Positions 705 to 21,018 of a stretch of 24,000 bases of DNA are shown piece after piece (within the stretch, counting starts at the first letter, position 1; the number at the start of each line of letters is the position of its first letter). The DNA is taken from the NCBI RefSeq assembly GCF_000181515.1, contig NZ_ABCG01000004.1, positions 1 to 24,000 of the forward strand. The letters run 5' to 3'. A program made the translations under genes and the position numbers. The stretch comes from Erythrobacter sp. SD-21. Lineage in GTDB: Bacteria; Pseudomonadota; Alphaproteobacteria; Sphingomonadales; Sphingomonadaceae. The notes below the pieces were generated by a model. The model saw only the letters and a list, made by a program, of their open reading frames with translations. It did no database searches and had not been told where the DNA came from.

Positions 705-1613
705 TTGGAGACGCCTAACGTGATCAAGGAAGCCCGCCTGCCCGTTCGTCATCGCTCATGGTTGTTCGCGCCGGGTGACAGCGAGAAAAAGATGACCAAA
801 GCGACCGAAGGGGACGCCGACATTGTTATCTTTGATCTCGAAGATGCCGTAGTCGAGGGTGAGAAACCCGCCGCACGCGCGCGGGTCTCTCATTTTCTTC
901 AGATGCAAAACGAAGCCGGACGTGCACGTCTATGGGTTCGTATCAACCCGCTCGATGGGCCACATACTGCGGACGATTTGGCAGCGGTATTGCCCATGCA
1001 GCCAGGCGGGATCATGCTGCCGAAATCACGCGGCCGTGAGGATGTGGAAAAGCTCGACAGGATGCTGACCGCGCTGGAACTCGAACATGGTCTTGAGCCA
1101 GGAGCCATGCCAGTTATCGCGCTGGTTACTGAAGTCGCCGCAGCCATGTTCACCACGGGCGATTATGCGGGAGCCCCGAGACTAGTTGCCATGACTTGGG
1201 GAGCGGAAGATCTTGCAGATTCCGTTGGGGCGCTGTCCAACTGCGGGCCAGACGGAGATTACCGTTTCACCTATGAACTCGCTCGCAGTTTGACATTGCT
1301 GGGTGCTGCGGCGGCTTCGGTACCGGCCATAGAGACAATAGACGCAGATTTCCGCAACTTACAGGGCCTGAAGGTGCGCGCAGAGCGAGTTCGGCAGGAT
1401 GGCTATCGCGGTATGTTGGCGATACACCCAGACCAGGTCCGGGTAATCAATGCAGCTTTCACGCCGACCGAGAAAGAGGTTCAAGAGGCGCGCGAGATTA
1501 TCGATCTGTTCGATGCTAAGCCCGGGGCCGGAACGATCGGGTATAAAGGTAAAATGCTTGATCGGCCTCACTTGAGCCGCGCACGGCAACTCCTCGCGCT
1601 GCGTTCTAGCTAG
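705..1613 (+). CDS. CoA-ester lyase / citrate lyase beta-subunit-like protein (HpcH/HpaI aldolase-CitE family)
   Basis: The N-terminal SWLFAPGD...ADIVIFDLEDAV and the later ...MTWGAEDL... fit the CitE/malyl-CoA lyase family pattern. The track start at 705 is TTG. An in-frame GTG at 720, preceded by GGAG (707-710), is the more likely start. Confidence 0.75.
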   Translation: METPNVIKEARLPVRHRSWLFAPGDSEKKMTKATEGDADIVIFDLEDAVVEGEKPAARARVSHFLQMQNEAGRARLWVRINPLDGPHTADDLAAVLPMQPGGIMLPKSRGREDVEKLDRMLTALELEHGLEPGAMPVIALVTEVAAAMFTTGDYAGAPRLVAMTWGAEDLADSVGALSNCGPDGDYRFTYELARSLTLLGAAAASVPAIETIDADFRNLQGLKVRAERVRQDGYRGMLAIHPDQVRVINAAFTPTEKEVQEAREIIDLFDAKPGAGTIGYKGKMLDRPHLSRARQLLALRSS

Positions 1614-2989
1614 GTCGAAACTACGATTTCGTCGTACACCGGGTCATACCGCAGTTCGATTCCCGCGCTGACCAGTTGTTTGAGAGTGACGAATTCCTCG
1701 CTGGCCTTTGCATTGCGAAGACCGGCAAATTCAGTCGGGTCAAATCGGTCCTCGAAGAGGTCAAGCACCTGACCAAGATGCACTGATATCGTGCGATCCC
1801 CATTAACCTGAAAGGGCACGGCACCGACTTCTCGCCCGTCCATCCTCACAGCCATACGTTTCTTGAAAGCGGGCTGCGTGATCTGATCGATATAGGCGAG
1901 AGAGGCTGATGTAGCTATTTGTTCGATTTCAGCCTTGGATGTTCGACCTCTTGTTGACGACGTGGGGGGGGCTGCACGATTGACCGCTGCTTCCGCAGTG
2001 GGTCGGTGTGGCGGATCATGCCGACCGAGGCGGGATTGCACCGAAGCTGTGCCGGCAAGGCCGGTTGCCGTGTTTCCGGGCGCCCTGATTGCTTGGCGAG
2101 CGATTGCGGCCCTTGCCGAACGTTCACCCTGGACCTTTGCAAGTATCGCGACGCGCTCGCTTTCGCTGAGAATGGTTTGCGCTGGCTCAAGCCGTTCCGT
2201 GGACGAGGTGGGGACTTTATCGACACCGCTATTTTGCGGGCGGGAAGCGAATGTGTCGGTCGCGCCGGCTATCTCCGGTATACCGTGCGAATTTTCTGAA
2301 TCGGAGAATGCTTGGCTAGCGTTCAAGTTATAGACGGGCCGTGTTTCCGAAGCGGGAATGGACGAGGAAGGCGCCCCATTTCTCTGCGCAGCCTCATCAC
2401 CGCCAAGATATCCAACATGGCTTATCGACGGACGCACTGAGTCGACTTGGGGAGGCGCCGAGGTGTTATAGTCACGTGAAACCTCGAGCGGGCGCGGAAG
2501 CTTTTCTGTCGTGCTGCTGGGAGTGACTGTACGGATTTCTTTGCCCAGCTCGCCCACTCTACGCGAGGGGGTACTTCTGACGAGAGGCATGTCGGAAACG
2601 TTAGCCGCGAATTGTGGACTTTCTACCACGGTTTTCAATTCTGCCCCCGCGTGGTCACCGGAAGCATTTCTGACCTCCCTCGACTGAGCGCCCGTCAACA
2701 TGGGTTGCGGAACTCTATCAACCGCAATCTGGTCACGGAAATCGCGTGCCGGCTGGCTGGCAAATTTCATTCCCAAATTGGGCGATAGCTGGGGACGAGG
2801 TTCAATTGCGACAGGCGATACCACTGTCGTACGGTCAATCTGACGAGCCGCACGAGGTCGATCTGGCAAGCGAACCCTCTCAGCAGCCGATTGCGGTTCA
2901 AATTTGATTGACGGCTGAGCGACGACGAGGCCCCAAACGGCTGCGCTTGAAAGAAGGGCTGTCGTGCGATGGACGCTCTGGCTTCTCAC
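1610..2989 (-). CDS. Hypothetical protein, last gene of the curli-type operon: N-terminal signal anchor, ~350-aa Pro/Ser/Arg-rich low-complexity region, ~100-aa C-terminal globular domain
   Basis: GTG start at 2989 preceded by GGGGAGGA. Hydrophobic N-terminus TTALLSSAAVWGLVVA. Long low-complexity middle. Ordered-looking C-terminus (AFKKRMAVRMDGREVGAVPFQVNGDRTISVHLGQVLDLFEDRFDP...IELRYDPVYDEIVVST). Same strand as the CsgH-like gene and 50 nt downstream of it. I recognise no family. Confidence 0.6.
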   Translation of the reverse strand: MRSQSVHRTTALLSSAAVWGLVVAQPSIKFEPQSAAERVRLPDRPRAARQIDRTTVVSPVAIEPRPQLSPNLGMKFASQPARDFRDQIAVDRVPQPMLTGAQSREVRNASGDHAGAELKTVVESPQFAANVSDMPLVRSTPSRRVGELGKEIRTVTPSSTTEKLPRPLEVSRDYNTSAPPQVDSVRPSISHVGYLGGDEAAQRNGAPSSSIPASETRPVYNLNASQAFSDSENSHGIPEIAGATDTFASRPQNSGVDKVPTSSTERLEPAQTILSESERVAILAKVQGERSARAAIARQAIRAPGNTATGLAGTASVQSRLGRHDPPHRPTAEAAVNRAAPPTSSTRGRTSKAEIEQIATSASLAYIDQITQPAFKKRMAVRMDGREVGAVPFQVNGDRTISVHLGQVLDLFEDRFDPTEFAGLRNAKASEEFVTLKQLVSAGIELRYDPVYDEIVVST

Positions 2990-3039
2990 AATTCCTCCCC
3001 CAAATCAACAAAACCAGACCTGTGTCCGTTAGTTAAAAC

Positions 3040-3393
3040 TTACTTGACCTCCAGCGACGCGCAATCTCCTGCCGTCAGTGTGTATGTAGATCCAGATTGT
3101 TCTGTGATCTCGGCAGTTGCGCACCATGTCCCGCTGTGCGACACCCGAAACTGCGAAATAGAGGTCTCGGTCTGGGCCGGAACTTTCGACTTCCCGCTAT
3201 GCCGGGAACGCGAGTCGCCGATCACTTCGATTTGGTAATCGACGACTTGATCGTGAGGCGACTTCGCAATCATCTCGATTTGGATTGTTCCATCGCCATC
3301 CTCGATCCGCATTGAGATTGCCTGTTCGCTTTCCACTACCTGTTCTCCGGTTGCCACGCTGCTGAGCAGAATGAGAGATGCGATAGTAATCAT
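3040..3393 (-). CDS. csgH: CsgC/CsgH-like small secreted protein (putative curli amyloid-inhibiting chaperone)
   Basis: 117 aa with signal peptide MITIASLILLSSVATG. The alternating beta-strand pattern DYQIEVIGDSRSRHSGKSKV...ISQFRVSH...WCATAEITEQSGSTYTL parallels E. coli CsgC CRVQILSLREGSSGQSQTK...LTKLSLNI...VKIVVTVSDGQSLHL. It lies in a curli locus of the alphaproteobacterial type, where CsgH is known. ATGA start/stop overlap with the upstream gene. Assigned by pattern and context, not by a search. Confidence 0.5.
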   Translation of the reverse strand: MITIASLILLSSVATGEQVVESEQAISMRIEDGDGTIQIEMIAKSPHDQVVDYQIEVIGDSRSRHSGKSKVPAQTETSISQFRVSHSGTWCATAEITEQSGSTYTLTAGDCASLEVK

Positions 3394-4148
3394 AGTCCGC
3401 CCCCGGCCTGGGTGGAGAATTGTTCCACGATCGCGTTGATGAGGGCCTGCGTTTCGGCCGATAGTTCGCTTGGATTCGGTTCCTCGGATGTCGGCTGCGC
3501 CGGGGCCAACGTCGAACTGCCGAGTGCGACAGATGCGATGGCCTGATCCTCATTTGAATTGAGCGCGCTGTTACCCCGGGCAAGCCTGGAAATAGCCGAT
3601 TCGAGCGTTGCTACCCGATCGCTATCGAGACCCTCGCCGAGCAGGCGTTCTTCCGGAGACAGGCTGGGTGCGGAGTTGCCGGCAAACTCTTCGGACCTGT
3701 CCTCCAATCTAACAAGGCACAATTCGATAATTGCCGGATTGCTGGGCTCCCGCTCGCAAATGTCCGTCCCATTTACGGCGCTGAATAGTATCGCGCGGTC
3801 ACGCTCCGTCAGTTGCGCCAGTGCGCGCCGCCCCCGTTCGCGGGTTAGTTGATCGGTTGTGCCGCCCATTTCGCGATCACGGGCAGACAATTGGACCATC
3901 TCCTGGTCGGGCCGACGGGGGTTCTCGAGCGTTTGGCCCTCCAGCGACTTGTCATCGCTAGCTGGAGGATTCGTCGCTTTCTCTGCGGTGGTTGGAAGAA
4001 ATGCCTTGAGCGAGGCACTCTCTGCACTATCGGAGGAAGTCTGGTTTACGTAAACGGAATCTTCGGCAGCCAGAACAGGAACGTTTCTAGGTTCCAAATC
4101 CGATTGGGTGGAAAGCAAAAGCAACGGAAGAAGAGTGAAAGTCGACAT
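3390..4148 (-). CDS. Hypothetical acidic secreted protein (252 aa), embedded in the curli operon
   Basis: The track ORF (3390-4262) overlaps the upstream gene. ATG at 4148 gives a signal-like N-terminus MSTFTLLPLLLLSTQS and lies 2 nt after the short-curlin stop (TGAACATG). Glu/Asp/Ser-rich, helical-looking C-terminal half, two Cys (DICEREPSNPAIIELC). Its stop overlaps the csgH-like start. No family recognised. Confidence 0.6.
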   Translation of the reverse strand: MSTFTLLPLLLLSTQSDLEPRNVPVLAAEDSVYVNQTSSDSAESASLKAFLPTTAEKATNPPASDDKSLEGQTLENPRRPDQEMVQLSARDREMGGTTDQLTRERGRRALAQLTERDRAILFSAVNGTDICEREPSNPAIIELCLVRLEDRSEEFAGNSAPSLSPEERLLGEGLDSDRVATLESAISRLARGNSALNSNEDQAIASVALGSSTLAPAQPTSEEPNPSELSAETQALINAIVEQFSTQAGGGL

Positions 4149-4979: not shown

Positions 4980-5011
4980 GCGGGGGCGAAAATAAGGCTT
5001 TCCGCCCCCGC
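4980..5011 (-). other. GC-rich intercistronic hairpin between giant curlin 1 and the short curlin
   Basis: GCGGGGGCG(4980-4988) and CGCCCCCGC(5003-5011) form a 9-bp perfect stem with a 14-nt loop. Neither strand has a convincing U-tract. Confidence 0.45.
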
Positions 5012-5038: not shown

Positions 5039-6883
5039 TCAGTTGCCCTGGGTCACCATAGCCGAGTTTCCAGTACCGGTTTGCGTGACAGTCGACATGT
5101 GACCATCGCCAGTCTGATTGACAGTCGCGGTATTGAACTCGCCATTCTGCGTGATCATCGACTGAAGTTCCGAACCGTTCTGACTGCTTGTTGCGGTGTT
5201 ATCAGCCCAGTTCTGGACGATTTCCGAGGTGTTCAGCAGACCGCCATTCTGGGTAATGGTGGCGATGCTGTTGTTCTGCGGAGATCCGCCGGCATCGTCA
5301 CCGTTCTGGGTTATGCGAGCGGTGTTTTGATCCGCACCCGCCAACTGGTGGATGGTAGCTGTTTCACCGCGGGCGTTGCCGATCTGAGTGATGAACGCCT
5401 GACCGCTCGCACCTTCCTGATTGATGGTCGCATCGTTGTTGCCTTCCGAACCCTGAAGGATGGTGGCATCGTTATCCGACGATCCGAGCGTCTGGTTTAC
5501 CCGGGCAAAGTTCCCGAAGCCGCCCTGATCGATATCGGATTCGTTACCCGTACCAAACTGGTCGACATCGATTTCGCTGTTCTGACCGTCCTGACGTGCG
5601 CGTGAGGTTTCGAACGAACCTCCTTGGTCGACGTTGGCCAGCTGACCACGATTGAGCTGGGTCAGGTCCGACGTGTTGTCGCTGCCGGTCTGGGTTACAT
5701 TGGTCGTCAGGGAATTGTCAGGGTTGTTTACGGGAGCGCCGCCGAGATCGGCCTGAACGATGGTCGAATCGTGCCCGTCGCCAGTCTGGTTGACCGTTGC
5801 GGCGAAGGTATTCGAACCGTCATTGTTGAACGTTTGCGTGATGGTCGAAGTGCTCACGCCGTTCTGCGTCACGACCGCGTCCATGTTGGTCGCTTCATCA
5901 CCCAAGATGGTCTGATTGACAGTCGAAGTCGCGCCGCCTGCCTGACTGACGCTGGCGAAGGCATCGCTGGCATCGCTGCCGGAAATCGACTGGTTTACAT
6001 CGGAATTGTTTCCGTTGCCGTTCTGCATCACTTCGGCGGCCAGCAAGCTCGAACCATCCTGATCGACATCCGACAGGTTATCGTTGCCGAGCTGCGTGAC
6101 CAGCGCCGACTCCTCCGAACCGTTCTGGTCGACGTAGGACTCGTTGCCGTTGCCGGTCTGGTCCACGATCGCGGTCAGAAGCGAGGGATCGACAGTGCTC
6201 TGCTGACTAACAGTCGAAACGTTATCGTCGCCAGTCTGATCGACCGAGGCAAGGCTGCGATTGGCGTTGCCGGGGTTACCATTGGTCATCTGCGTGGTTG
6301 ACGATGAGTTGCGGTTACCAATCTGCGTCGTGTTCGCGGTCGAATAGGTTGCCGGATCCTGAGTGATCGACGACATGTTGTCGTCGCCCGACTGCACTAC
6401 GCCGGCCGCTGCATCGCCATCCGTGACACGCAGGCTGTTGCCCGCCTGCACCACGGAAGAATCATTGCCTGCGCCATCCTGAAGCACCGTCGCAGTAAGG
6501 AAGCGTCCATCCTGCGAAACGTCCGAAATGTTGTCACCGTTCTGGTCGACGCGAGCGAGATTGTTGCGTCCGCCCACTTGCGTAACAGTGGATTCGGCGC
6601 TGTCGCCTGCCTGATCGACGAACACTTCGTTGGGCGTGTTTTCAGTGCCGGTGCCGCTCTGGTTCACGGTCGATTGTCCGTTGGTACCCGCCTGATCAAC
6701 GGTAGCTTCGTTGTAGACACCGGTCTGCAGTACATCGGAATCGTTGCTCGAACCGGTCTGCGTGACGTCGGCCGACAGATTGTGGCCGGTCTGATCAATA
6801 TCGCTATTGTTGCTCTGCGCGAATGCGGGAGCGGCGATGCCAAGGGCAATGATCGATGCACTGGTGAGAATAGTCTTTTTCAT
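5039..6883 (-). CDS. Giant curlin-repeat protein, paralogue 1 (614 aa)
   Basis: Start chosen at MKKTILTSASIIALGIAAPAFA|QS, by conservation of the signal peptide across the four paralogues (the track start at 6925 is a GTG inside a hairpin). The whole mature protein is ~11-aa half-repeats S-x-[VI]-x-Q-x-G-x-x-N-x. No Lys or Cys in the mature part by my reading. No Shine-Dalgarno is visible upstream (AAATTAACCAGATCATG). Confidence 0.85.
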   Translation of the reverse strand: MKKTILTSASIIALGIAAPAFAQSNNSDIDQTGHNLSADVTQTGSSNDSDVLQTGVYNEATVDQAGTNGQSTVNQSGTGTENTPNEVFVDQAGDSAESTVTQVGGRNNLARVDQNGDNISDVSQDGRFLTATVLQDGAGNDSSVVQAGNSLRVTDGDAAAGVVQSGDDNMSSITQDPATYSTANTTQIGNRNSSSTTQMTNGNPGNANRSLASVDQTGDDNVSTVSQQSTVDPSLLTAIVDQTGNGNESYVDQNGSEESALVTQLGNDNLSDVDQDGSSLLAAEVMQNGNGNNSDVNQSISGSDASDAFASVSQAGGATSTVNQTILGDEATNMDAVVTQNGVSTSTITQTFNNDGSNTFAATVNQTGDGHDSTIVQADLGGAPVNNPDNSLTTNVTQTGSDNTSDLTQLNRGQLANVDQGGSFETSRARQDGQNSEIDVDQFGTGNESDIDQGGFGNFARVNQTLGSSDNDATILQGSEGNNDATINQEGASGQAFITQIGNARGETATIHQLAGADQNTARITQNGDDAGGSPQNNSIATITQNGGLLNTSEIVQNWADNTATSSQNGSELQSMITQNGEFNTATVNQTGDGHMSTVTQTGTGNSAMVTQGN

Positions 6884-6915
6884 GATCTGGTTAATTTCGA
6901 AAATGGGAAGGAATA

Positions 6916-6943
6916 CCGGGCGCACCTCGATTGGCGCGCCCGG
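6916..6943 (-). terminator. Hairpin plus U-rich tail after giant curlin 2 (candidate partial intrinsic terminator)
   Basis: CCGGGCGC(6916-6923) pairs with GCGCCCGG(6936-6943). On the - strand it is followed by UAUUCCUUCCCAUUUUCG. Confidence 0.45.
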
Positions 6944-6952
6944 CTCGGAAGC

Positions 6953-8608
6953 TTACATTCCCTGCGTGACGCTGGCCGTGTTGCCGTTGCCGTTCTGATT
7001 CACGTATGAGGTGTTGGCATCGCTGTTCTGCGTAACGGTCGCGCTGTTACCCGAACCATCCTGTGCGATATCCGACAGGTTGTCGTTGCCCAGTTGGTTG
7101 ACGTCTGCAGTGTTCCCGAAACCGTCGACCGTACCGTTCTGCGAGAGCCGGCTGGTGTTGCCCGAACCAGACTGCAGGACATCAGCGGTGCTGTTAAAGC
7201 CTGACTGAGTCAGTTCGGACACGTTGAGCGCACCCGACTGGCTGACCGTCGCGGAATTTTCGCTACGGTCACCGCTGACATCGCCAAGCTGGGTGATGAG
7301 CGAGGTCGAACCATCCGAGCCAGCCAACTGCTCGACAAAGGCGCTGTCGTTGCGGCCGGTCTGGTCGATGGTCGAGGTCGCACCGATGCCATCCTGAGTG
7401 ACGTTGGCAGAGTTATTCAGGCCAAGCTGAAGCGAGTTCGAGGTGTTCGCATCGCCCGACTGCAGGACAGTGAGATCGTTGCCCGCGGTGCCCTGGAAAG
7501 CATCGACGATATTGCTGTCGCCGGTCTGATCGATATCGGCAAACGCGCTCTTGTTTTCCTGGACGAGGGCCGAGGTGTTGTCGTCGCCAGTCTGGTTGAC
7601 GTCGGCCACGAGACCGCCATCCGCGTTACCGATGACACCAAAGCCTTCATCGCGCTGCGTGACATTCGATAGATTGCCGCTGCCGTTCTGGTTGACGGTC
7701 GCCATGAAGTTGCTCGAACCATCGTTGTCGAACGTCTGCGTGATGTTGGAAGTGCTCGCACCGTCCTGCGTCACGATGGCGTCCTGCGTCACCGATTCAT
7801 CGCCATTTGCGCGCTGGGTAATGTTCGAGGTCGCGCCGTTAAATTGCGTGACATCGGCATTCAGGTCACTCGTCAGGTTGCCCGTCAGCGACTGGGTGAT
7901 GTTCGACAGCGAACCGCCCGACTGATTGACGCGGGCTACCGCTGTCGGATTCTGACCGCTGGCGTCACTGGCGGTCTGTATGATGTTCGAGGTCGAAGCA
8001 TCCTGTGTGACATAGGCGTTCAGGTTCTTACCCGCGTTCGATCCGGTCTGGATGATGTCCGAGCTCGCATCGCCCGTCTGGTTGACCTGGGCGCGAAGAC
8101 CACCGGTGTAGCCAGGGCCGTCCGAGTTCTGGTCGATATTCGACGAGTTGTTGTCACCGGTCTGCGTGACGCGCGCGGTCTGGTTGAAACCGCCGCCGGC
8201 AGCGATGGTCTGGGTGATGCCGGACATGTTGCTGTTGCCGATCTGGCTGACAGTTGCGTCGGGATCGAAATCGGCAACGCCGGTCGTGCCGTCCTGGCCG
8301 GGTGCGGTGTCCGGATCGTCTTGGTCGATTGTGGAAACGTTGCTGTCACCGTCCTGCGTCACATCGGCAAGGCCGAAGAAAGAGTCTTGGTCGATCGTTG
8401 AACTGTTGCCGGCTCCCGACTGAACATTGCTGGCCGAGTTGCTGTCGCCAGTCTGATCGATATCCGAAGTATTGGAACCGCTCTGTGAAACAGTTGCGCC
8501 GTTGGCATTGCCGGTCTGGTCGACGTCGCTGGTATTGCTTTGCGCCGCTGCCGGAGCTGCAATGCTGAGGGCCAGTACGCTGGCGCCTGTCATGATAGTT
8601 TTTTTCAT
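6953..8608 (-). CDS. Giant curlin-repeat protein, paralogue 2 (551 aa)
   Basis: MKKTIMTGASVLALSIAAPAAA|QS signal peptide, RBS AAGGTGAG, curlin half-repeats throughout, C-terminus NGNGNTASVTQGM. The central block ITQTFDNDGSSNFMATVNQNGSGN is collinear with paralogue 1. Confidence 0.88.
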   Translation of the reverse strand: MKKTIMTGASVLALSIAAPAAAQSNTSDVDQTGNANGATVSQSGSNTSDIDQTGDSNSASNVQSGAGNSSTIDQDSFFGLADVTQDGDSNVSTIDQDDPDTAPGQDGTTGVADFDPDATVSQIGNSNMSGITQTIAAGGGFNQTARVTQTGDNNSSNIDQNSDGPGYTGGLRAQVNQTGDASSDIIQTGSNAGKNLNAYVTQDASTSNIIQTASDASGQNPTAVARVNQSGGSLSNITQSLTGNLTSDLNADVTQFNGATSNITQRANGDESVTQDAIVTQDGASTSNITQTFDNDGSSNFMATVNQNGSGNLSNVTQRDEGFGVIGNADGGLVADVNQTGDDNTSALVQENKSAFADIDQTGDSNIVDAFQGTAGNDLTVLQSGDANTSNSLQLGLNNSANVTQDGIGATSTIDQTGRNDSAFVEQLAGSDGSTSLITQLGDVSGDRSENSATVSQSGALNVSELTQSGFNSTADVLQSGSGNTSRLSQNGTVDGFGNTADVNQLGNDNLSDIAQDGSGNSATVTQNSDANTSYVNQNGNGNTASVTQGM

Positions 8609-8718
8609 CTCACCTTCTTCACGTTTAAGTGCTTGTTATTATTTGCGACTTAATTGGTACTGCGGGGTTTTCCGTGCCGCTTGCCTGTCACACTCTGTTG
8701 CGTTCGCAGTGCGAGAAG

Positions 8719-8749
8719 GCGGGAGCGTGCCGCGCTGGCACACCCCCGC
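8719..8749 (-). other. Interrupted GC-rich hairpin after giant curlin 3
   Basis: GCGGG(8719-8723)/CCCGC(8745-8749) enclose GTGCC(8727-8731)/GGCAC(8737-8741). An AT-rich stretch follows at 8609-8660, upstream of paralogue 2. Confidence 0.35.
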
Positions 8750-8756
8750 TCTTTCC

Positions 8757-10412
8757 TCAGTTCTGCGCTACGGTTGCGCTGTTGCCTGCACCGTCTTGAG
8801 CAATGGTGGAGACGTTCGAGCTTCCACCCTGCGTAACCAGCGCACTATTCAAGTCGCCCGACTGGGTGATCGTGCTCCGGTTCAGATCGCCGGAATCGAT
8901 CAGCGTGGCCAAGTTGTCGTGGCCGTCCTGCATAATCAGCGAGTAACCGTTGGTGCCGGTCTGCAAGCTGGAAGCGCTGTTGCCCGACACGGCCGGATCG
9001 CCCAGCGTGTTGGTCTGGCCGATCGTGCTGGCGTTGCCCGAACCTTCCTGCGTGATGCTGGCCTCCATCTGGCGCGCGGGACCACCGTTTGCGGCGCTAT
9101 CCGAATACTGGTTGATGGTGGCGGTGTTCGAGGCGCCGACCTGATCGACAGCGGCGCTCGAAAAGTTCGAGTAGCCGGTCTGGCTGACATTGCTGACCAG
9201 ATTGTCACCGACCTGGCTGACGAAGGCCGAGCCGAAGTTGGCCGACTGCGTTACGCTCGAGTAGTTGTCGAAACCATCCTGCGTGACACCGACCATCGCT
9301 ACGTCGCCGTCACCGTCAAACTCGCCGGCTGCGTTATCGAGGCCCGGCTGATCGACGATGCTTGTGTTACGCTCGCCGTACTGTTCGACAGCAGCCACGT
9401 TCTGCGAACCGAACTGCGTAATGGTCGAATTGTTGTCCGTACCGTCTTGGAGAAGGTCCAGCTGCTGCAAACTGGTCAGCCGGTTTGGCGAACCCTGAGT
9501 CGCGTTGCTGACATTGGTGGTGCCATCCTGCGAAATGTTTGCAGTGGCTGAGGCACCCTGCTGCGTCAGGTTGGACGAGTTGCCCGTGCCGCTCTGCGAA
9601 ACGAAGCCGTCGTTGTACTGGCCCGTCTGGTCCGTCGTAGCCATGTTGGACGTACCGTTCTGGATGATCGATGCGTCCTGATCGGCGGGGTTTGCCGAAC
9701 TCAGCTGGTTGATCGTGCCGGAATTGCCGGTCCCCGTCTGGCCGATTGTAGCGAAACTGCGCAGTTCGGCGCCGTTGCCGCTGACCTGCTCTTGACGGAT
9801 GACGCCATCGTTGTCGTCGCCGGTCTGGCTGATAGCGCCGCTCGAATACTTGGCCGGATTCTGATCGATGTTTGCCAGATTTCCGTTGCCGTTCTGGACA
9901 ATACCGCCTTCGGCCGCATTGTTGGTGTTACCGATGAAGTTGCCCGTGCCGCGCTGGTCGACATAAGCCTCGTTGAGATCACCGGTCTGGTAGACTTCGG
10001 CCTGCGACGCGCGGCCGGCCTGCGTCACGGAGGCATAGCTGTCCCCGTTCTGGTCCACATATGTGGTCAGTCGGTTGGCATCGCCGCCGTCTCCGTTTTC
10101 CTGCAGAACGTCGGCTTCGGCACTGTCGCCGGCCTGGATCACGGTTGCCCGATTGGTTTTCGAAAGCTCCTGGCCGTTGCCGGTCTGGACAATGTCGACA
10201 TCGCCGTTGCTGCCGGACTGATCGACGACTGCGTCGTTGAACTGCGAGCTCTGGTCGATGTCGGACGTGTTGTCCGAACCGGTCTGCGTCACATCGGCGC
10301 TGAGATCGTTGCCGTTCTGATCGATATCGGACTGATTGTTGCTTTGTGCAGCTGCCGGAGCCGCGATGCCGAGCGCGAGTGCGCTGGCGCTGGTGAGTAT
10401 AATCTTTTTCAT
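8757..10412 (-). CDS. Giant curlin-repeat protein, paralogue 3 (551 aa)
   Basis: Start at MKKIILTSASALALGIAAPAAA|QS, preceded by AGGAGG (the track start at 10448 is upstream of the RBS). Curlin half-repeats throughout; C-terminus DGAGNSATVAQN. Confidence 0.87.
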   Translation of the reverse strand: MKKIILTSASALALGIAAPAAAQSNNQSDIDQNGNDLSADVTQTGSDNTSDIDQSSQFNDAVVDQSGSNGDVDIVQTGNGQELSKTNRATVIQAGDSAEADVLQENGDGGDANRLTTYVDQNGDSYASVTQAGRASQAEVYQTGDLNEAYVDQRGTGNFIGNTNNAAEGGIVQNGNGNLANIDQNPAKYSSGAISQTGDDNDGVIRQEQVSGNGAELRSFATIGQTGTGNSGTINQLSSANPADQDASIIQNGTSNMATTDQTGQYNDGFVSQSGTGNSSNLTQQGASATANISQDGTTNVSNATQGSPNRLTSLQQLDLLQDGTDNNSTITQFGSQNVAAVEQYGERNTSIVDQPGLDNAAGEFDGDGDVAMVGVTQDGFDNYSSVTQSANFGSAFVSQVGDNLVSNVSQTGYSNFSSAAVDQVGASNTATINQYSDSAANGGPARQMEASITQEGSGNASTIGQTNTLGDPAVSGNSASSLQTGTNGYSLIMQDGHDNLATLIDSGDLNRSTITQSGDLNSALVTQGGSSNVSTIAQDGAGNSATVAQN

Positions 10413-10434
10413 TTGGTCCTCCTGTTGAACGTAG

Positions 10435-10463
10435 CGAGGCGGAAGCACAGGGCCCCCGCCTCG
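10435..10463 (-). other. GC-rich intercistronic hairpin between giant curlins 4 and 3
   Basis: CGAGGCGG(10435-10442) and CCGCCTCG(10456-10463) form an 8-bp perfect stem with a 13-nt loop. No U-tract. Confidence 0.4.
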
Positions 10464-10469
10464 ATCTGG

Positions 10470-11831
10470 TTAATTGCCCTGCGTGACAGTGGCCGTGTTG
10501 CCGGTGCCGTTCTGCGCAACCGACGAGTAATCGGATGTGCCCGTCTGAGTGACGGTCGCTGCGTTACCCGTTCCGTTTTGATCAATATAAGACTCGTTGT
10601 TGGAACCGGATTGATCGACCAGCGCGGAGTTTCCGTCGCCGTTTTGCATGATCGAGCTGTATTCGCTCGACCCGTTCTGCAGCACATTTGCGAACTGGTT
10701 GGCACCGTCCTGCAGGATGTTGCTTACATCCGCGCTGCCAAGCTGTTCGACGATTGCCGAATTGTCCGAACCGGCGCCGCCGATCTGCTGGATATCGCTG
10801 ATGTTGCTGCCGCCGGACTGCGTAACGAGAGCTGTGGAATCGCGGCGCTGATCGATGGCGCTCGTGTTGCCGTCACCGGACTGAATGACGGTAGCCGAGT
10901 TATCTCGGCCGACATCGGTTGGGCTGGGCGGAGCAAGGCCTTCGCCCTGAGTGACGAGACTGCCGTTGCCATTCCCGGACTGCGTTATCGAAGCAAAGTT
11001 CGAAGTGTCCTGGATCAGGTTGCTGTCATTGCCATCACCGGTCTGGCTGACGGTGGCATCGTTGAACTGGTCCTGGAACAGGTTGCTGTCGTTATCGCTA
11101 CCCGACTGCAAAACCGTGCCGGTGTTGCCTTGGCGGTACTGGTCGACATCGGAGAAGTTGTTCGATGCCGACTGCGTAACGATGAGCGAGTTGGCCTGAC
11201 GGGACTGATCTACGTCGGAAATGTTGTTCGTTCCCGACTGGATCACGTCCACGCGGGAGGCAGGATCGAATTCCACGCCATTCACGCCGGTGTAATCCTG
11301 GTTGATGGTGGAGCGGTGGCCAGTACCCTCCTGCGAGTTGTAGGCCGCTGCGCCGGTGATCCCGCCGGCAGAGTCGTCCTGGACCATGGTCGACTGGTTG
11401 TCGCTTCCGTTCTGGATGACCCGCGCGTTATTGGCATAACCCGAAGGTACGGTGCTGTCGGCATCCGTATCGGCAGGATCGTAGCTCGAAACCTGAGTGA
11501 TGTTGGCAATGTTCGACTGTCCACCGGGATTATCGTTGTTTTGTTCGACACGGGCCCGGCTGTTATCGCCGTCCTGATCGATAATCGATTCGTTCGATGG
11601 TGTGTTGAACGGTGTGGAGCCGACCGGGTTTTCGGTCTGTGTTACTTCGACGAAGTTATCGTCGCCGTCCTGATCGACATCGGAGAGGTTCTCGTTGCCC
11701 TGCTGGCTGACGGTGGCCGAGTTGTCCTCGCCGTTCTGCCAGATGTCGGAGGTTTGAACCTGTTGGGCAGACGCCGGAGCAGCAGCGATAAGCGCAACGA
11801 TCGAAGCGCCTGTAAGGATCGTATTCTTCAT
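10470..11831 (-). CDS. Giant curlin-repeat protein, paralogue 4 (453 aa)
   Basis: Start at MKNTILTGASIVALIAAAPASA|QQ (ATG 11831, AAGGTGA upstream). About 33 half-repeats by hand count. C-terminus NGTGNTATVTQGN. No Lys or Cys seen in the mature part. Confidence 0.87.
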   Translation of the reverse strand: MKNTILTGASIVALIAAAPASAQQVQTSDIWQNGEDNSATVSQQGNENLSDVDQDGDDNFVEVTQTENPVGSTPFNTPSNESIIDQDGDNSRARVEQNNDNPGGQSNIANITQVSSYDPADTDADSTVPSGYANNARVIQNGSDNQSTMVQDDSAGGITGAAAYNSQEGTGHRSTINQDYTGVNGVEFDPASRVDVIQSGTNNISDVDQSRQANSLIVTQSASNNFSDVDQYRQGNTGTVLQSGSDNDSNLFQDQFNDATVSQTGDGNDSNLIQDTSNFASITQSGNGNGSLVTQGEGLAPPSPTDVGRDNSATVIQSGDGNTSAIDQRRDSTALVTQSGGSNISDIQQIGGAGSDNSAIVEQLGSADVSNILQDGANQFANVLQNGSSEYSSIMQNGDGNSALVDQSGSNNESYIDQNGTGNAATVTQTGTSDYSSVAQNGTGNTATVTQGN

Positions 11832-11869
11832 GACTTGCATCACCTTTTGATCAAGGCGATACTCAAGGA

Positions 11870-11962
11870 TCACGACGGCGCAGAAGACGCCGAGTGGCTT
11901 AGGTATCGCAGCCTACATTTCTGCACGCATCGGAGTTGCCGCTCCTTTGCGTGCGTTTTTTT
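11870..11962 (+). ncRNA. Candidate small RNA (~90 nt), antisense to the csgG/curlin-4 intergenic region
   Basis: The + strand has TTGCAT(11835-11840), a 17-nt spacer and GATACT(11858-11863). Downstream is a strong + oriented terminator. No + strand CDS is present. Prediction only. Confidence 0.25.
11923..11962 (+). terminator. Strong intrinsic terminator oriented on the + strand, inside a - strand operon
   Basis: GCACGCA(11923-11929) pairs with TGCGTGC(11948-11954), with an inner GGAG/CTCC stem. It is followed by G and then TTTTTTT(11956-11962). On the - strand the hairpin is followed by AGAAAUG, with no U-tract. Confidence 0.6.
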
Positions 11963-11999
11963 GCGGCCCAGTAGCGTGTTTCACGCTTCTTAATCTGGT

Positions 12000-12039: not shown

Positions 12040-13014
12040 TCAGGAGCCGGTGCGGCTCCCGCGGCCTTCGTCGCGTTCGACTACCTCGAGGGCGGTCAGC
12101 GATCCGGCGCGGCGAACGGCGTTCTGTACGTCGCGCGCGTCGTAGACGCCGTCCCGCTCGGCGCGGTAGGTCGACATGAGCGGCTGGGCCGCCTGCATGT
12201 CGGCAAACCGCCACAGGTCGAGTTCGACGCCTTCGAGGACCAGGCCATAAACGGCCTTTTCGATCGCCTGCTGGAGGGCTATCTGGTCGGGTTCGTTGGT
12301 GGTGATCCCCCATTCGGCTTCGAGCAATTCCTTGAATCCGACGAATTTGTACGTGCTCAGTCCGACTGCCTTGCTGGCAATGGTCTTCGAGGCCGTCACA
12401 TTGGTGAGAACCTCGCCGGTGCGGACGGAGACCGCCCGCAGGTACACCGTTACAGTGTCCTGACGGTATTCGGTCCGGCCGCCAATGCCGAGGAAGGCTG
12501 CGCCGGCGCCGCCGGTCACGGTGTTGGTGTCGTAGCCGACGATCCCGCCTTCGAGCAGGACCCCGGCGAACATGAGCGCGGGCAGTGCGCTGGCGTCGAC
12601 TTCTTCCTCGCCGAGGTAGCGCTTGCGCATCTCGGTGATGATCTGGCGTTCCTTCAGGAGGTTATCGAGGCGTTCGCGTTCCACCACGGTGAACCAGTCG
12701 CGCGAGCCGGCATCCTGGAGGGCCTTCACGAGGATCGAACTTGCCCCTTGCGTGACGGCGCGTGACAGCGTTTGCCCGGCCTCGGTGGGCTTGAACTGCC
12801 CGGTCTGGTCGGTGAAACCGTAGACGGCAATCGCCACCTGGCGTTCCGGCGCGGGCAACTGCTGCAGCAGGCTTTGTGTCTGGGTCTGCTTGGGGAAATA
12901 GGCGAGGCTGGTTTCTTCCGGCAGCAGGTCGCGGCCGTCGTCACCGAGCGTGGTGCACCCACCCAGTAGCGAGGCGGCTGCCGCGAGGCAGCAGGTCAGT
13001 CCGATGCGGGCCAT
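12040..13014 (-). CDS. csgG: Curli production assembly/transport outer-membrane lipoprotein CsgG
   Basis: 324 aa. Lipobox LLGGC|TT. The block AIAVYGFTDQTGQFKP...TLSRAVTQGASSILVKAL is characteristic of the CsgG family. Its start shares 1 nt with the csgF stop (TGATG). Confidence 0.92.
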   Translation of the reverse strand: MARIGLTCCLAAAASLLGGCTTLGDDGRDLLPEETSLAYFPKQTQTQSLLQQLPAPERQVAIAVYGFTDQTGQFKPTEAGQTLSRAVTQGASSILVKALQDAGSRDWFTVVERERLDNLLKERQIITEMRKRYLGEEEVDASALPALMFAGVLLEGGIVGYDTNTVTGGAGAAFLGIGGRTEYRQDTVTVYLRAVSVRTGEVLTNVTASKTIASKAVGLSTYKFVGFKELLEAEWGITTNEPDQIALQQAIEKAVYGLVLEGVELDLWRFADMQAAQPLMSTYRAERDGVYDARDVQNAVRRAGSLTALEVVERDEGRGSRTGS

Positions 13015-13439
13015 CAGTTCACCTCGATGAATAGCGGAACCACGATGCGGGTTTCTTCGCCCGTATCGTCATTGGTGATGATGAGCGTCACGGAATCGAG
13101 CGATCGGAAGAACGAGATCGTCTGGCCGCCAAAGCTGATGACCCCGCTTTCCTGCGGATCGTCACCGAAGATGGCGTCGACGATTTGCGACGACAGCGCC
13201 GAAAGCAGGCGGGATTGCAATTGGCGGGCGAAAATATCGGCTTGCGAATTGGTGCTGGCCGCATTCGGGTCCTTGGTCTTGTTCTGCGCATTCGCAATGC
13301 CGAGGATGTGGTTGGAATTGAACGGATTGCCGCCGAATGTCGGGCTTATCGGTTCGTGGACGATGTCCTGTGCATTGGCCGGGACCGCAACACATGCCGC
13401 ACCCGCGCCAATAATAGCCCAAAGGCCTCTCGAAGTCAT
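13014..13439 (-). CDS. csgF: Curli assembly component CsgF
   Basis: 141 aa with a signal peptide ending PANA|QD. The mature N-terminus IVHEPISPTFGGNPFNSNHILGIANAQNK matches the conserved CsgF N-terminal motif that inserts into the CsgG channel. Strong SD GAGGGGGG. Immediately upstream of csgG. Confidence 0.88.
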   Translation of the reverse strand: MTSRGLWAIIGAGAACVAVPANAQDIVHEPISPTFGGNPFNSNHILGIANAQNKTKDPNAASTNSQADIFARQLQSRLLSALSSQIVDAIFGDDPQESGVISFGGQTISFFRSLDSVTLIITNDDTGEETRIVVPLFIEVN

Positions 13440-13783: not shown

Positions 13784-14521
13784 TCACGCTCGATCGAGCT
13801 TGGCCACTTCGGCGAGCACCCGCTCGGCCCATTCGGGGCGGCAGATGAGCAGGTCGGGCATGTAGGTATCCGCTTGGTTGTAGGTGAGCGGGCTGCCGTC
13901 GATCCGGCTTGCGTGCATCCCATGGGCGAGCGCCACCGCGGCAGGGGCGGCGCTGTCCCACTCATATTGCCCCCCCGTGTGGAGATAGATTTCCGCCTCG
14001 CCGCGCACCACGGCCATGGCCTTCGCTCCGGCCGATCCCATCGGCACGAGTTCCGCGCCGATGGCTTCGGCGACGGCAACGGCTTCCTTGGCCGGACGCG
14101 TACGGCTGACGACCATGCGCGGGGCGTCTGCGGCTGCGGGCACGTCGATAGGCGCATCGGTGCGCAGGACCATGTCGAGGCCGGGCAGGGCGACCGCACC
14201 CGTTTCCGGCTTGCTGTCGACGCAAAGCGCTACGTGGACCGCCCAGTCCGAACGGGCCTCGCCATATTCGCGCGTGCCGTCGACCGGGTCGACGATCCAC
14301 ACGCGGCTCTTGGCGAGGCGTTCTGCCGTGTCCTTGCTTTCTTCCGACAGTAGGCCGTCTTCGGGGCGCTGCTGGGTGAGCGCGTGGCAGAGGAACTGGT
14401 TGGCCGTCTCGTCGCCGGCCTTGCCCAGGGATTTGCCTTCGAACATGCCGCTCTCCCGAACCTGGATCAAGATCTTGCCTGCGACTTCGGCAAGATGGGC
14501 GGCGAGTTCGGCGTCGGTCAT
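13784..14521 (-). CDS. cysQ: 3'(2'),5'-bisphosphate nucleotidase CysQ / inositol monophosphatase family protein
   Basis: 245 aa starting at MTDAELAAHL (ATG 14521). Family motifs LLSEES, VWIVDPVDGTREY and GSAGAK are present. The upstream 224 aa of the track ORF overlap gluP out of frame and are rejected. Confidence 0.8.
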   Translation of the reverse strand: MTDAELAAHLAEVAGKILIQVRESGMFEGKSLGKAGDETANQFLCHALTQQRPEDGLLSEESKDTAERLAKSRVWIVDPVDGTREYGEARSDWAVHVALCVDSKPETGAVALPGLDMVLRTDAPIDVPAAADAPRMVVSRTRPAKEAVAVAEAIGAELVPMGSAGAKAMAVVRGEAEIYLHTGGQYEWDSAAPAAVALAHGMHASRIDGSPLTYNQADTYMPDLLICRPEWAERVLAEVAKLDRA

Positions 14522-14530
14522 GGGCGTCCC

Positions 14531-14592
14531 TAAAGATACAAAAGAATTCGGGGGCCGCATGGCAGACCGAAGCCTCCTTGCGAACCCCCGAA
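14531..14592 (-). terminator. Candidate intrinsic terminator after the sugar transporter gene
   Basis: On the - strand UUCGGGGG (14592-14585) pairs with CCCCCGAA (14554-14547). The loop is long (~30 nt). It is followed by UUCUUUUGUAUCUUU. Confidence 0.4.
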
Positions 14593-14613
14593 GGTCGGTG
14601 TGAATGCGAATTC

Positions 14614-16035
14614 TTACGCGGCGGCAGGGCGCCGCGCGAAGAGTCCGAAGCCTGCGATAATCGCGTAGCAGGCGATCGGCAGGATCATCGCGAAAGCGAG
14701 GCTGCCGCTGGCATCCGCGAGGACGCCGTAGAGGAGCGGAACCACCGCGCCGCCGAAGATGGCGACGTTGATGATGCCCGACCCGTCGGCTGCCCGCGGA
14801 CCGAGCCTCTCGCAGGCGAGCGAGAAGATGGTCGGGAACATGATCGAGTTCATCAGGCCGACGGCGAGCAGGCTGTAGGCCGAGAGTTCGCCGGTCGTCA
14901 TGATGCTGATCAGGATCAGGATGATCGAGCCCGTCGCGTTGAAGGCGAGGATCTTGCCAGGCGAGAAGACGCGCAGGAAATAGGAGCCGATGAAACGGCC
15001 AACCATGGCGCCGCCCCAATAAAGGCCGATCATCCAGCCGATCACGCTCTCCGGTTCGCCAAGGACACGGTCCTGCGCGAGGTAGTTGATGATGATCGAT
15101 CCGATCGAGACCTCGGCACCCACGTAGAGGAAGATGCAGAGCGCGCCGAAGCTGAAACGGCTGCGGCGCAGCAGATCGTTGTCGTACAGCCATGTGAGCG
15201 GGGCTGCGATGATCAGCAGCACGCCGAGCCAGGCGTTGACGTTGATCGCCAGCAGCGCACCGACGACGATGATCGCGAGGCCGACGAGGTAACGGCCATT
15301 CGACACGAACTCGTTTTCGCCCATCATCTTCGGATCATGCGGCAGGCGATTGCGAAACAGCCATACGGCGAGGGCGACGATGGCGATCAGCGCGGCAACG
15401 CCGAGATAGCCCTGCCAGATGGCTTCGCTTTCGGCTTGCCTGTAGGCGGTAAGCTCGGCTCCGGAGAGTTGGTCTGCGGTAACATTGGCCAGGCTGCCCA
15501 GGATGACCGCGGCGCCCACGATCGGGAAGACGGTGGTACCGAGCGAGTTGAACGCCTGCGCAAAGGTAAGACGGCTGTGCGCCGTTTTTTGCGGGCCAAG
15601 CAGGGAGATGAGCGGGTTTGCCACCACCTGTACGATCACCACGCCGCTGGCGAGAATGAACAGGGCGAAGAGGAAGATCTCGTAGGTTGCCGTCTGGCTC
15701 GCCGGGATGAACAGAAGGCAGCCGACCATCATGGTCAGCAGTCCGGCAACCGCGCCGCGCATGTAACCGAGCTTCTTGACCAGCTTCGCCCCCGGAATAC
15801 CGATCACGAGATAGGCGAAGAAGAAGCAGAATTGCACCAGCATCGCTTCGGTGTAGCTGAGCGTGAAGAGTTCCTTCAGCTTCGGGATGATCACATCGTT
15901 GAGCGAGGTGATGCCGCCGAAGATGAAGAACAGGCCGAAGACGAAGTAGTTGAGGCCTGGGGCGTGAATGCCGCCGCCCTCTTTCTCGATCGGGTTCGGA
16001 TCCGTGCTCGACGAAACGTCGGGTGCGAGTGCCAT
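14614..16035 (-). CDS. gluP: Glucose/galactose (FucP/GluP-type) MFS sugar:H+ symporter
   Basis: Start at MALAPDV (ATG 16035), preceded by GGGAGGA. FFIFGGITSLNDVIIPKLKELFTLSYTEAMLVQFCFFFAYL is the hallmark N-terminal region of the FucP/GluP family. About 12 hydrophobic segments. Confidence 0.85.
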   Translation of the reverse strand: MALAPDVSSSTDPNPIEKEGGGIHAPGLNYFVFGLFFIFGGITSLNDVIIPKLKELFTLSYTEAMLVQFCFFFAYLVIGIPGAKLVKKLGYMRGAVAGLLTMMVGCLLFIPASQTATYEIFLFALFILASGVVIVQVVANPLISLLGPQKTAHSRLTFAQAFNSLGTTVFPIVGAAVILGSLANVTADQLSGAELTAYRQAESEAIWQGYLGVAALIAIVALAVWLFRNRLPHDPKMMGENEFVSNGRYLVGLAIIVVGALLAINVNAWLGVLLIIAAPLTWLYDNDLLRRSRFSFGALCIFLYVGAEVSIGSIIINYLAQDRVLGEPESVIGWMIGLYWGGAMVGRFIGSYFLRVFSPGKILAFNATGSIILILISIMTTGELSAYSLLAVGLMNSIMFPTIFSLACERLGPRAADGSGIINVAIFGGAVVPLLYGVLADASGSLAFAMILPIACYAIIAGFGLFARRPAAA

Positions 16036-16091
16036 TTCAGTTGTCCTCCCAAGTCCCGGTGCGACCCAACGTAGCCCGGGTTTTGTTGCTG

Positions 16092-16128
16092 CGCTTTGTG
16101 TGCCAGCCTTCTGCCGTCCCACAAAGCG
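16092..16128 (-). other. Hairpin in the GH3-gluP intergenic spacer
   Basis: CGCTTTGTG(16092-16100) and CACAAAGCG(16120-16128) form a 9-bp perfect stem with a 19-nt loop. Confidence 0.3.
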
Positions 16129-16142
16129 AATACGATTGCTGC

Positions 16143-18518: not shown

Positions 18519-18548
18519 ATTCCTCATCCCTCCGCGTTCTCTCCCAAT

Positions 18549-18562
18549 TGAGAACGTTATCA
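18549..18562. promoter_or_regulatory. LacI-family operator upstream of the GH3 gene
   Basis: TGAGAACGTTATCA has 12 of 14 positions symmetric around a central CG, fitting the classic TGnnAACGTTnnCA architecture. It lies ~31 nt upstream of the GH3 start, with a LacI-family regulator two genes upstream. Confidence 0.55.
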
Positions 18563-18602
18563 AAGGCGAGAAATGCCATGCGTTAAGGGCAAAATCAAGC
18601 CG

Positions 18603-20856: not shown

Positions 20857-20963
20857 GTCAATGGGCCCCCCGAAATTTCGTTTGCCGACTTCGTAAAGTC
20901 TAATGAAGCGAGTCGAATCCCGCCATTCGAAAGCCCCACAAATCTGGGCATACCATACGGATA

Positions 20964-21000
20964 CGGGCCCCGGTCGCTTCAACCGAGGCCCGCCTTTTTA
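20964..21000 (+). terminator. Terminator-like hairpin between the TonB-dependent receptor and the lacI-family gene, with its T-run on the + strand
   Basis: CGGGCC(20964-20969) pairs with GGCCCG(20987-20992), followed by CCTTTTTA on the + strand. On the - strand it is preceded by AAAAA and followed by UAUCCGUAUGG. Confidence 0.35.
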
Positions 21001-21018
21001 ACCGGTCATCCGGCCCAC

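Follow-up and report, generated by a model that had tools for sequence, protein, structure and literature searches.

The minus strand of a 24,000-nucleotide stretch of DNA from Erythrobacter sp. SD-21 (contig NZ_ABCG01000004.1, positions 1 to 24,000; hereafter the window) carries a block of genes which we regard, with a probability of about 0.8, as the structural-subunit part of a curli (type VIII secretion) operon of the alphaproteobacterial kind. The genes are arranged in the order csgF-csgG, four large curlin genes (designated P4, P3, P2 and P1, as are their products), a small curlin gene (P5), an uncharacterised open reading frame (ORF X; ORF, open reading frame) and csgH, and all of them lie on one strand. 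Judged by their sequences, the products of P1 to P4 are curlins of the CsgA/CsgB superfamily, and a tandem array of giant curlin genes is the usual arrangement in Sphingomonadales, within the published diversity of curli systems (see below).

The four large curlins and their predicted fold

The initial annotation of this DNA described four tandem large curlin paralogues of 453–614 residues, about 2170 residues in total, and the ORF coordinates bear this out: the four ORFs are intact, with no frameshifts or stops, and sum to 614 + 551 + 551 + 453 = 2169 amino acids. All four proteins score far above the 20.7-bit cut-off of the Pfam family Curlin_rpt (PF07012), with 6–10 separately significant stretches each. 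Their scores against the NCBIfam equivalog model for CsgA (NF007470) are 116, 71, 132 and 84 bits, all under the cut-off of 160 bits; they are therefore members of the curlin superfamily and not orthologues of E. coli CsgA. With the NCBIfam model for CsgB (NF007506; cut-off 165 bits), which cannot tell A from B subunits outside Enterobacteria, P1 (178 bits) and P3 (197 bits) exceeded the cut-off only by summing 5–7 repeat stretches, and P2 (132 bits), P4 (152 bits) and P5 (72 bits) fell below it.

A Sec signal peptide, also proposed initially, was recognized by inspection in all four proteins; it is 22 residues long, with an MKK n-region, a hydrophobic core and an A-x-A cleavage site before a Gln residue; the signal peptides are MKKTILTSASIIALGIAAPAFA, MKKTIMTGASVLALSIAAPAAA and MKKIILTSASALALGIAAPAAA, each followed by QS, and MKNTILTGASIVALIAAAPASA, followed by QQ. 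The mature proteins start straight with a conserved first repeat (QSN-x-SD-I/V-DQ), with no Gly-rich N22-like segment. Their composition is as previously described, with 0–2 Lys, no Cys, 64–69% of D/N/Q/S/T/G residues and a strongly negative net charge (−47 to −61).

Segmentation by dynamic programming divided the large curlins into 38 (P4), 47 (P3), 46 (P2) and 51 (P1) half-units with the consensus N-x-(A/S)-x-(V/I)-x-Q-x-G-x-x; 26–31 spacings per protein are of exactly 11 residues, the modal value, and a Gln is found at the anchor position in 34–48 units per protein. In 66 of 88 consecutive unit pairs, the first core position switches between Ser and Ala, so that the actual repeat is the one typical of curlins, about 22 residues long and present 19–25 times per protein. 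The initial annotation had spoken of an uninterrupted run of half-repeats, by hand count about 33 in the smallest protein. The units of 11 residues do extend throughout the proteins, but the count was slightly low (38) and the run is only almost uninterrupted, each protein having a few degenerate or Pro-containing units as well as arc insertions (spacings of 13–18). No tandem repeats were found at the DNA level in the curlin genes with TRF (Tandem Repeats Finder); the repeats are therefore old at this level, and a recent intragenic expansion is ruled out.

AlphaFold2 was run on P4 with a 22-sequence alignment that did not include orthologues of up to 74% identity. The model has 35 strands of 6–8 residues with arcs of about four residues between them (mean predicted local distance difference test score, pLDDT, 77.9; predicted template modelling score 0.79); the C-terminal two-thirds are modelled with high confidence, which falls precisely where the units are degenerate. 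The P4 sequence matches that of a 15.5-repeat curlin solved by cryo-electron microscopy (8C50; E 8e-22) and that of the E. coli CsgA fibril (8ENQ; E 9e-6). A Foldseek search of the PDB with the P4 model gave no significant match, only weak three-sided beta-helices. The strand pattern and the homology to 8C50 and 8ENQ strongly indicate a two-sheet, strand-arc-strand beta-solenoid as the predicted fold of the large curlins. All of the modelled CsgA homologues in a published set of more than 2500 are beta-solenoids, in which the number of repeats scales with the length of the monomer, with a rise of 4.8 Å per curlin repeat (Sleutel et al., 2023; PMC10192328). Using this value, one subunit is predicted to form about 17–25 rungs and to be about 8–12 nm long, versus about 2.4 nm for E. 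coli CsgA. The proposal of a solenoid several-fold longer than CsgA is thus in line with the 35 strands modelled for P4, the large curlins being predicted to have about 3.5–5 times the ten strands of CsgA. The large curlins end in canonical rungs that are open, without capping domains. A ‘Janus’ solenoid, with an acidic face and a Thr face, was considered and rejected: acidic residues (18–23%) and Ser/Thr residues (35–38%) occur on both classes of strands.

The four paralogues are 31–37% identical to each other (BLAST), in single high-scoring segment pairs over nearly their full length; they are therefore whole-gene duplicates and not independent expansions. Moreover, every paralogue has a better match in other genomes than within its own genome, and the duplications are old because each paralogue has closer relatives in other genera. 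The DNA for the signal peptides differs at 15–27 of 66 nucleotides, with 9–11 synonymous codon differences per pair. Both the divergence of the paralogues at the DNA level, even in the signal peptides, and an old and maintained duplication had been put forward in the initial annotation, and both are upheld.

The P2 type is the most conserved class, present in 25 related loci with up to 74% identity (53–74% across genera), among them loci L002, L024, L033, L056, L058, L063, L072 and others. It is also nearly constant in length, with at least 14 copies of 540–556 residues across genera (a class of about 543 residues). In 14 P2 orthologues, the inward N, psi1, psi2 and Q positions and the arc Gly are 72–100% conserved, and the outward and arc positions 32–52% (p 2e-30); at the sequence level, this pattern is the signature of purifying selection on a solenoid core. 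The P3 type was found in 12 loci (orthologues 44–55% identical), and the P4 and P1 types in four loci each. P1 is the fastest-evolving paralogue, with a best foreign match only 39–41% identical, and P1-type proteins range from 614 to 820 residues, with no more than about 39% identity. Where a class sits in the array varies among the related loci. The first and last 44 residues of the mature proteins are 52–53% identical among the paralogues, versus 30% for the middles (33% in a best-window control). The four genes are ancient whole-gene duplicates in which the core ladder (N, small hydrophobic, V/I, Q, G) was preserved and the first and last rungs stayed similar, the outward surfaces and the arc insertions having diverged.

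It could be argued that some copies lack a function of their own, as duplicates that are redundant, unexpressed or in decay, since P1 and P4 have few clear orthologues, with low identity to them, and since copy number varies freely between species. However, all four ORFs retain a signal peptide, their first and last repeats are canonical, the repeat register is held over 38–51 units, and paralogues this old would not stay open without selection; we consider decay very improbable.

Related loci and published curli systems

The initial annotation implied that the SD-21 array is a rarity. Scanning genomes with CsgG yielded 80 Sphingomonadales loci, with CsgG proteins 67–87% identical, in Erythrobacter, Qipengyuania, Porphyrobacter, Sphingopyxis, Sphingomonas, Blastomonas, Novosphingobium and other genera; orthologues in these loci, which are the related loci referred to throughout, were identified by local BLAST. 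A word-indexed protein search with P4 and P2, which stops at 8000 candidates and is saturated by low-complexity repeats, gave matches of at most 41% identity and did not recover the orthologues of 60–74%. Both csgF and csgG are present in all 80, curlin genes follow csgG in nearly all, and in 73 the array is closed by a small curlin of 200–290 residues. The closed arrays have no large curlin in one case, one in 10, two in 25, three in 22, four in 14 and five in one, so that four or more are found in 15 of the 73. The quartiles of large-curlin length in the related loci are 478, 546 and 674 residues, with a maximum of 1054, and 11 loci code for as many or more large-curlin residues than the SD-21 locus. 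Lys is nearly absent across 199 related large curlins, and 154 of 203 have no Cys. In addition, an exhaustive HMMER search with P2 retrieved 1417 cluster representatives (E ≤ 1e-3), among which are proteins as long as 1436 and 1632 residues. The same arrangement is thus the rule across Sphingomonadales and the implied rarity does not stand, all the more so as long, multi-copy homologues have been published (Dueholm et al., 2012; PMC3521004; Sleutel et al., 2023). We found nothing specific in the literature on curli in Erythrobacter or in Sphingomonadales.

Known CsgA homologues have 4–62 repeats, with secondary maxima near 15 and 22, and genomes carry up to 14 curlin copies, with a maximum of 30 (Sleutel et al., 2023); the 19–25 repeats of the SD-21 curlins fall on the secondary maximum near 22. 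The long-repeat CsgA homologues, such as that of Pontibacter korlensis (8C50), share with the SD-21 proteins the Curlin_rpt motif N-x-psi-x-psi-x-Q, the X-G-X-X arcs and a repeat of about 22–23 residues (Sleutel et al., 2023). The arc insertions, the degenerate units and the predicted beta-solenoid of the SD-21 proteins match the ‘D’ (degenerate) class of the same study, exemplified by Roseovarius indicus A0A0T5PAS6. Unlike the published long-repeat homologues, however, the SD-21 genes are four paralogues of ancient divergence, arranged in a single tandem array within the secretion operon, and the order-wide architecture, the P2 class of conserved length and the stem-loops that accompany each large curlin gene (see below) are not described in the curli papers cited here.

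Dueholm et al. (2012) reported repeat numbers of up to 22 in CsgA homologues and, in Alphaproteobacteria, csgH-type operons without csgC, csgD and csgE, and strains carrying csgH, which codes for a CsgC-like inhibitor, have a variable number of subunits (Taylor et al., 2016; PMC4838910). The SD-21 operon shares with these csgH-type operons the lack of csgC, csgD and csgE, the location of csgH beside the subunit genes, the large CsgA homologues and the variable subunit number; ORF X is not described in either study, and the Sphingomonadales arrays, the orthologue classes and the stem-loops are not analysed there. With the curli of E. coli and Salmonella, the SD-21 system has in common predicted Sec export, repeats with Q/N ladders, CsgG together with CsgF, and a distinction in size and sequence between major and minor subunits; moreover, the terminal repeats of the SD-21 proteins are the most canonical, like R1 and R5 of E. 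coli CsgA. In contrast, E. coli CsgA has five repeats in 131 residues, versus 19–25 repeats in 430–590 residues for the mature SD-21 proteins, and it has the Gly-rich N22 segment that the large SD-21 curlins lack. Furthermore, SD-21 has csgH in place of csgC and a single operon, whereas E. coli and Salmonella have two divergent operons. The HfaA/HfaB/HfaD holdfast anchor of Caulobacter, in which HfaB is a relative of CsgG, also involves curlin-like proteins. The possibility that the SD-21 genes code for such a holdfast system was rejected, as the channel protein scores only 33 bits against HfaB (cut-off 300) versus 201 bits against Pfam CsgG, and CsgF and CsgH are present.

Accessory genes, stem-loops and surroundings of the array

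The features of the operon are listed in Table 1. A Logan contig (L081) is 100% identical to this DNA over 10,924 nucleotides and gives the same gene calls. The csgF stop and csgG start codons overlap (TGATG), and P5, ORF X and csgH are tightly packed, ORF X beginning 2 nucleotides past the P5 stop codon and overlapping the csgH start by 4 nucleotides. None of csgE, csgC and csgD is present in the operon.

Table 1. Genes and intergenic stem-loops of the curli operon in the window, in the direction of transcription within each group
Feature	Coordinates	Strand	Description
csgF	13014..13439	−	141 aa; first gene of the operon; Pfam CsgF PF10614, E 2.4e-30
csgG	12040..13014	−	324 aa; outer-membrane curli secretion channel; Pfam CsgG PF03783, E 1.3e-59, 201 bits
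Large curlin P4	10470..11831	−	453 aa; ~38 half-units, 19 repeats; Curlin_rpt, E 2.9e-48
Large curlin P3	8757..10412	−	551 aa; ~47 half-units; Curlin_rpt, E 7.4e-49
Large curlin P2	6953..8608	−	551 aa; ~46 half-units; Curlin_rpt, E 5e-40
Large curlin P1	5039..6883	−	614 aa; ~51 half-units; Curlin_rpt, E 4.2e-48
Small curlin P5	4151..4909	−	252 aa; ~18 half-units; Curlin_rpt, E 3.3e-14
ORF X	3390..4148	−	252 aa; conserved uncharacterised operon member
csgH	3040..3393	−	117 aa; last gene of the operon; NCBIfam chap_CsgH_alph, 35.5 bits (cut-off 35)
Stem-loop past P4 stop	10435..10463	−	12 bp, GC-rich; 57-nt spacer folds at −24 kcal/mol
Stem-loop past P3 stop	8719..8749	−	13 bp, GC-rich; spacer minimum free energy −51.2 kcal/mol, z −2.7
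Stem-loop past P2 stop	6915..6944	−	12 bp, GC-rich, followed by a U-rich stretch; −27.8 kcal/mol, z −3.96
Stem-loop past P1 stop	4980..5011	−	13 bp, GC-rich; spacer minimum free energy −47.3 kcal/mol, z −2.9

In the small curlin P5, a Cys-x12-Cys pair lies within an N-terminal segment rich in Gly, Asn and Pro, the final repeats are degenerate and the C-terminal tail is rich in Pro. Relatives of P5 in related loci are 55–62% identical; a similar Cys pair is found in about one-third of the small ORFs of 180–309 residues that pass a curlin filter, a set that includes some ORF X homologues. P5 is probably a CsgB-like nucleator, as suggested by its position, its size and its degenerate C-terminus only. 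Homologues of ORF X were detected by tblastn in 67 of the 80 related loci, always between the small curlin gene and csgH. The product of ORF X, 100% identical to a hypothetical protein of Erythrobacter sp. SD-21, combines a signal-like N-terminus and a variable linker with a conserved, roughly 140-residue domain in which two Cys residues are invariant in the alignment; AlphaFold2 predicts this domain to be helical (pLDDT 75–84). It gave no match in Pfam (scanned to E ≤ 10), in NCBIfam or to a PDB fold. That it might be a detectable homologue of CsgE, CsgC or another known accessory protein of curli was rejected, because Pfam holds curli accessory families, the scan to E ≤ 10 returned none of them and the modelled domain is all-helical. 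From its conserved place in an operon that lacks csgE, ORF X is possibly a curli accessory factor. The csgH product is identical to WP_006833333.1, annotated as ‘curli-like amyloid fiber formation chaperone CsgH [Erythrobacter sp. SD-21]’; it has two Cys residues about 20 residues apart and no CxC, a criterion taken from Taylor et al. (2016), and its match to the NCBIfam CsgH family (NF041112) points to a CsgC-like periplasmic amyloid inhibitor.

Folding of the intergenic spacers as RNA revealed a GC-rich stem-loop past the stop codon of each large curlin gene; the stems differ in sequence among the genes, and none of 200 shuffled sequences was as stable as the stem-loop past P2. The same tendency is seen in 196 3′ flanks of large curlin genes from the 80 related loci, with a median minimum free energy of −33 versus −21 kcal/mol for mononucleotide shuffles (p 4e-38). 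Rfam contains no known RNA family that matches the curli region, stem-loops included, and a scan of this region for promoters and terminators gave nothing above shuffled expectation. As a hypothesis, the stem-loops may set the stoichiometry of the subunits, acting as partial terminators or as stabilisers of 3′ mRNA ends. The terminator scan, which overall did not exceed the shuffled expectation, also gave a terminator-like site at 3028–3015, after csgH. Past this site, just 3′ of csgH, a Pro/Ser-rich ORF of 459 residues (1610–2989, minus strand) has no Pfam match; about 100 residues of its C-terminus are conserved close to the curli locus, on either strand, in 28 related loci.

Long ORFs also occur antisense to the curlin genes, on the plus strand, at 9792–11993 (733 residues), 8472–9551 and 5624–6301. 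They were rejected as genes: they have no match to Pfam or other families and arise artefactually from the codon pattern of the repeats in genes of 58–60% GC. They are a possible trap for gene callers. The flanking genes are unrelated to curli on both sides of the operon. The window starts at the 3′ end of an rRNA operon, with a 5S rRNA (170–284) and a tRNA (509–582), both on the plus strand, and this flank also has a gene for an HpcH-type aldolase. Upstream of the curli operon, the region 13784–24000 contains a gene of the inositol-monophosphatase family (longest ORF 13784–15193; the true start is probably internal) and a sugar-utilisation cluster with two MFS (major facilitator superfamily) transporters, a GH3 glycosidase, a LacI regulator and a TonB-dependent receptor. 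The GC content is about 0.58 in the curlin genes and rises to 0.64–0.68 in this region.

Possible mixed fibres and competing explanations

From the membership of the proteins in known families and the linkage of their genes, and by analogy with studied systems, we infer the following route of assembly. The large curlins would be exported by Sec, as their signal peptides suggest, and would be held unfolded and non-amyloid in the periplasm by CsgH, by analogy with the R. palustris CsgH (Taylor et al., 2016). Linkage suggests that the unfolded chain would then cross the outer membrane through the CsgG/CsgF channel. At the cell surface, folding would proceed on a template provided by the CsgB-like P5, giving the two-sheet beta-solenoid predicted by AlphaFold2, and head-to-tail stacking of the subunits would produce the fibres. 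The paralogues could co-assemble into mixed fibres of differing surface chemistry, in proportions that the stem-loops would set. Heteropolymeric or condition-specific fibres had been suggested initially; mixed fibres are plausible, and compatible with paralogue termini that are more alike than the middles. Mixed fibres are weakly favoured over separate fibres because the locus codes for one channel and one putative nucleator and because the end rungs of the paralogues are alike.

Several observations weigh against this scheme. The N-terminal third of the P4 model has a pLDDT of only 53–71. The likeness of the termini could just as well stem from a common secretion signal together with shared recognition by the nucleator, with no co-polymerisation. 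No CsgE homologue is present, though unfolded substrates of 450–600 residues need delivery to CsgG. Lastly, the stem-loops have no clear U-tracts, except after P2, and were not flagged by a scan for consensus terminators.

Alternatively, each paralogue may form homopolymeric fibres of its own, for its own condition or surface, with its own transcription and with little or no co-assembly. Every large curlin gene indeed has its own spacer of 57–148 nucleotides and a strong stem-loop able to end a transcript, relatives have gained and lost the paralogue classes independently of one another (0–5 per locus, in variable order), and the outward residues and arc insertions differ strongly among the paralogues. 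However, no sigma-70-like promoter was found in any spacer, in a scan that covers alphaproteobacterial promoters poorly, and the four genes have the same orientation behind csgFG, with short spacers between them. The greater likeness of the terminal rungs than of the middles also argues against separate fibres, as does the promiscuous cross-seeding of curlins, which has been described even between species (Sleutel et al., 2023). We regard separate fibres as a serious possibility, albeit an unlikely one.

A stronger version of the mixed-fibre scheme would make Sphingomonadales curli obligate ‘block copolymers’, in which 2–5 giant curlins of ancient divergence, matching in their end rungs but differing in their surfaces, assemble on one CsgB-like nucleator, with a stoichiometry tuned by the stem-loops and with ORF X, as a new periplasmic accessory factor, replacing CsgE in the delivery of unfolded substrates of 450–1000 residues to CsgG. 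We put this forward as speculation, and regard it as unlikely.

Erythrobacter sp. SD-21 is a Mn(II)-oxidising strain. The large curlins might not form fibres at all but act as monomeric acidic beta-solenoids, secreted or retained at the surface, either as adhesins or as a matrix that binds cations or metals, possibly one that templates Mn oxides. Their net charge of about −0.10 per residue is roughly twice that of E. coli CsgA; Asp occurs frequently at outward and arc positions, and the near absence of Lys extends to the related large curlins (see above). Nevertheless, acidic and Ser/Thr residues are found on both faces, with no dedicated binding face, and a CsgB-like gene and the amyloid inhibitor CsgH are maintained, which is sensible only for amyloid-prone subunits. 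Moreover, open-ended rungs without caps favour end-to-end polymerisation (Sleutel et al., 2023). This explanation appears improbable to us.

As a curli locus, the SD-21 array is a well-formed example of a published class, and its value is descriptive. In Erythrobacteraceae and Sphingomonadaceae, the default curli locus is a tandem array of 1–5 giant subunits (median 546 residues) with one small curlin, and at least one paralogue class, of about 543 residues, is conserved across genera. What could raise the interest of the locus is the idea of mixed fibres, the stem-loops that accompany each large curlin gene, and ORF X. The SD-21 substrates are 3–5 times longer than CsgA, in an operon with no CsgE homologue. 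If mixed fibres were shown to form, programmable multi-subunit amyloid materials would have a natural model in this locus, which would also bear on how CsgG passes very long unfolded substrates without CsgE, a question on which ORF X and the stem-loops offer concrete leads.

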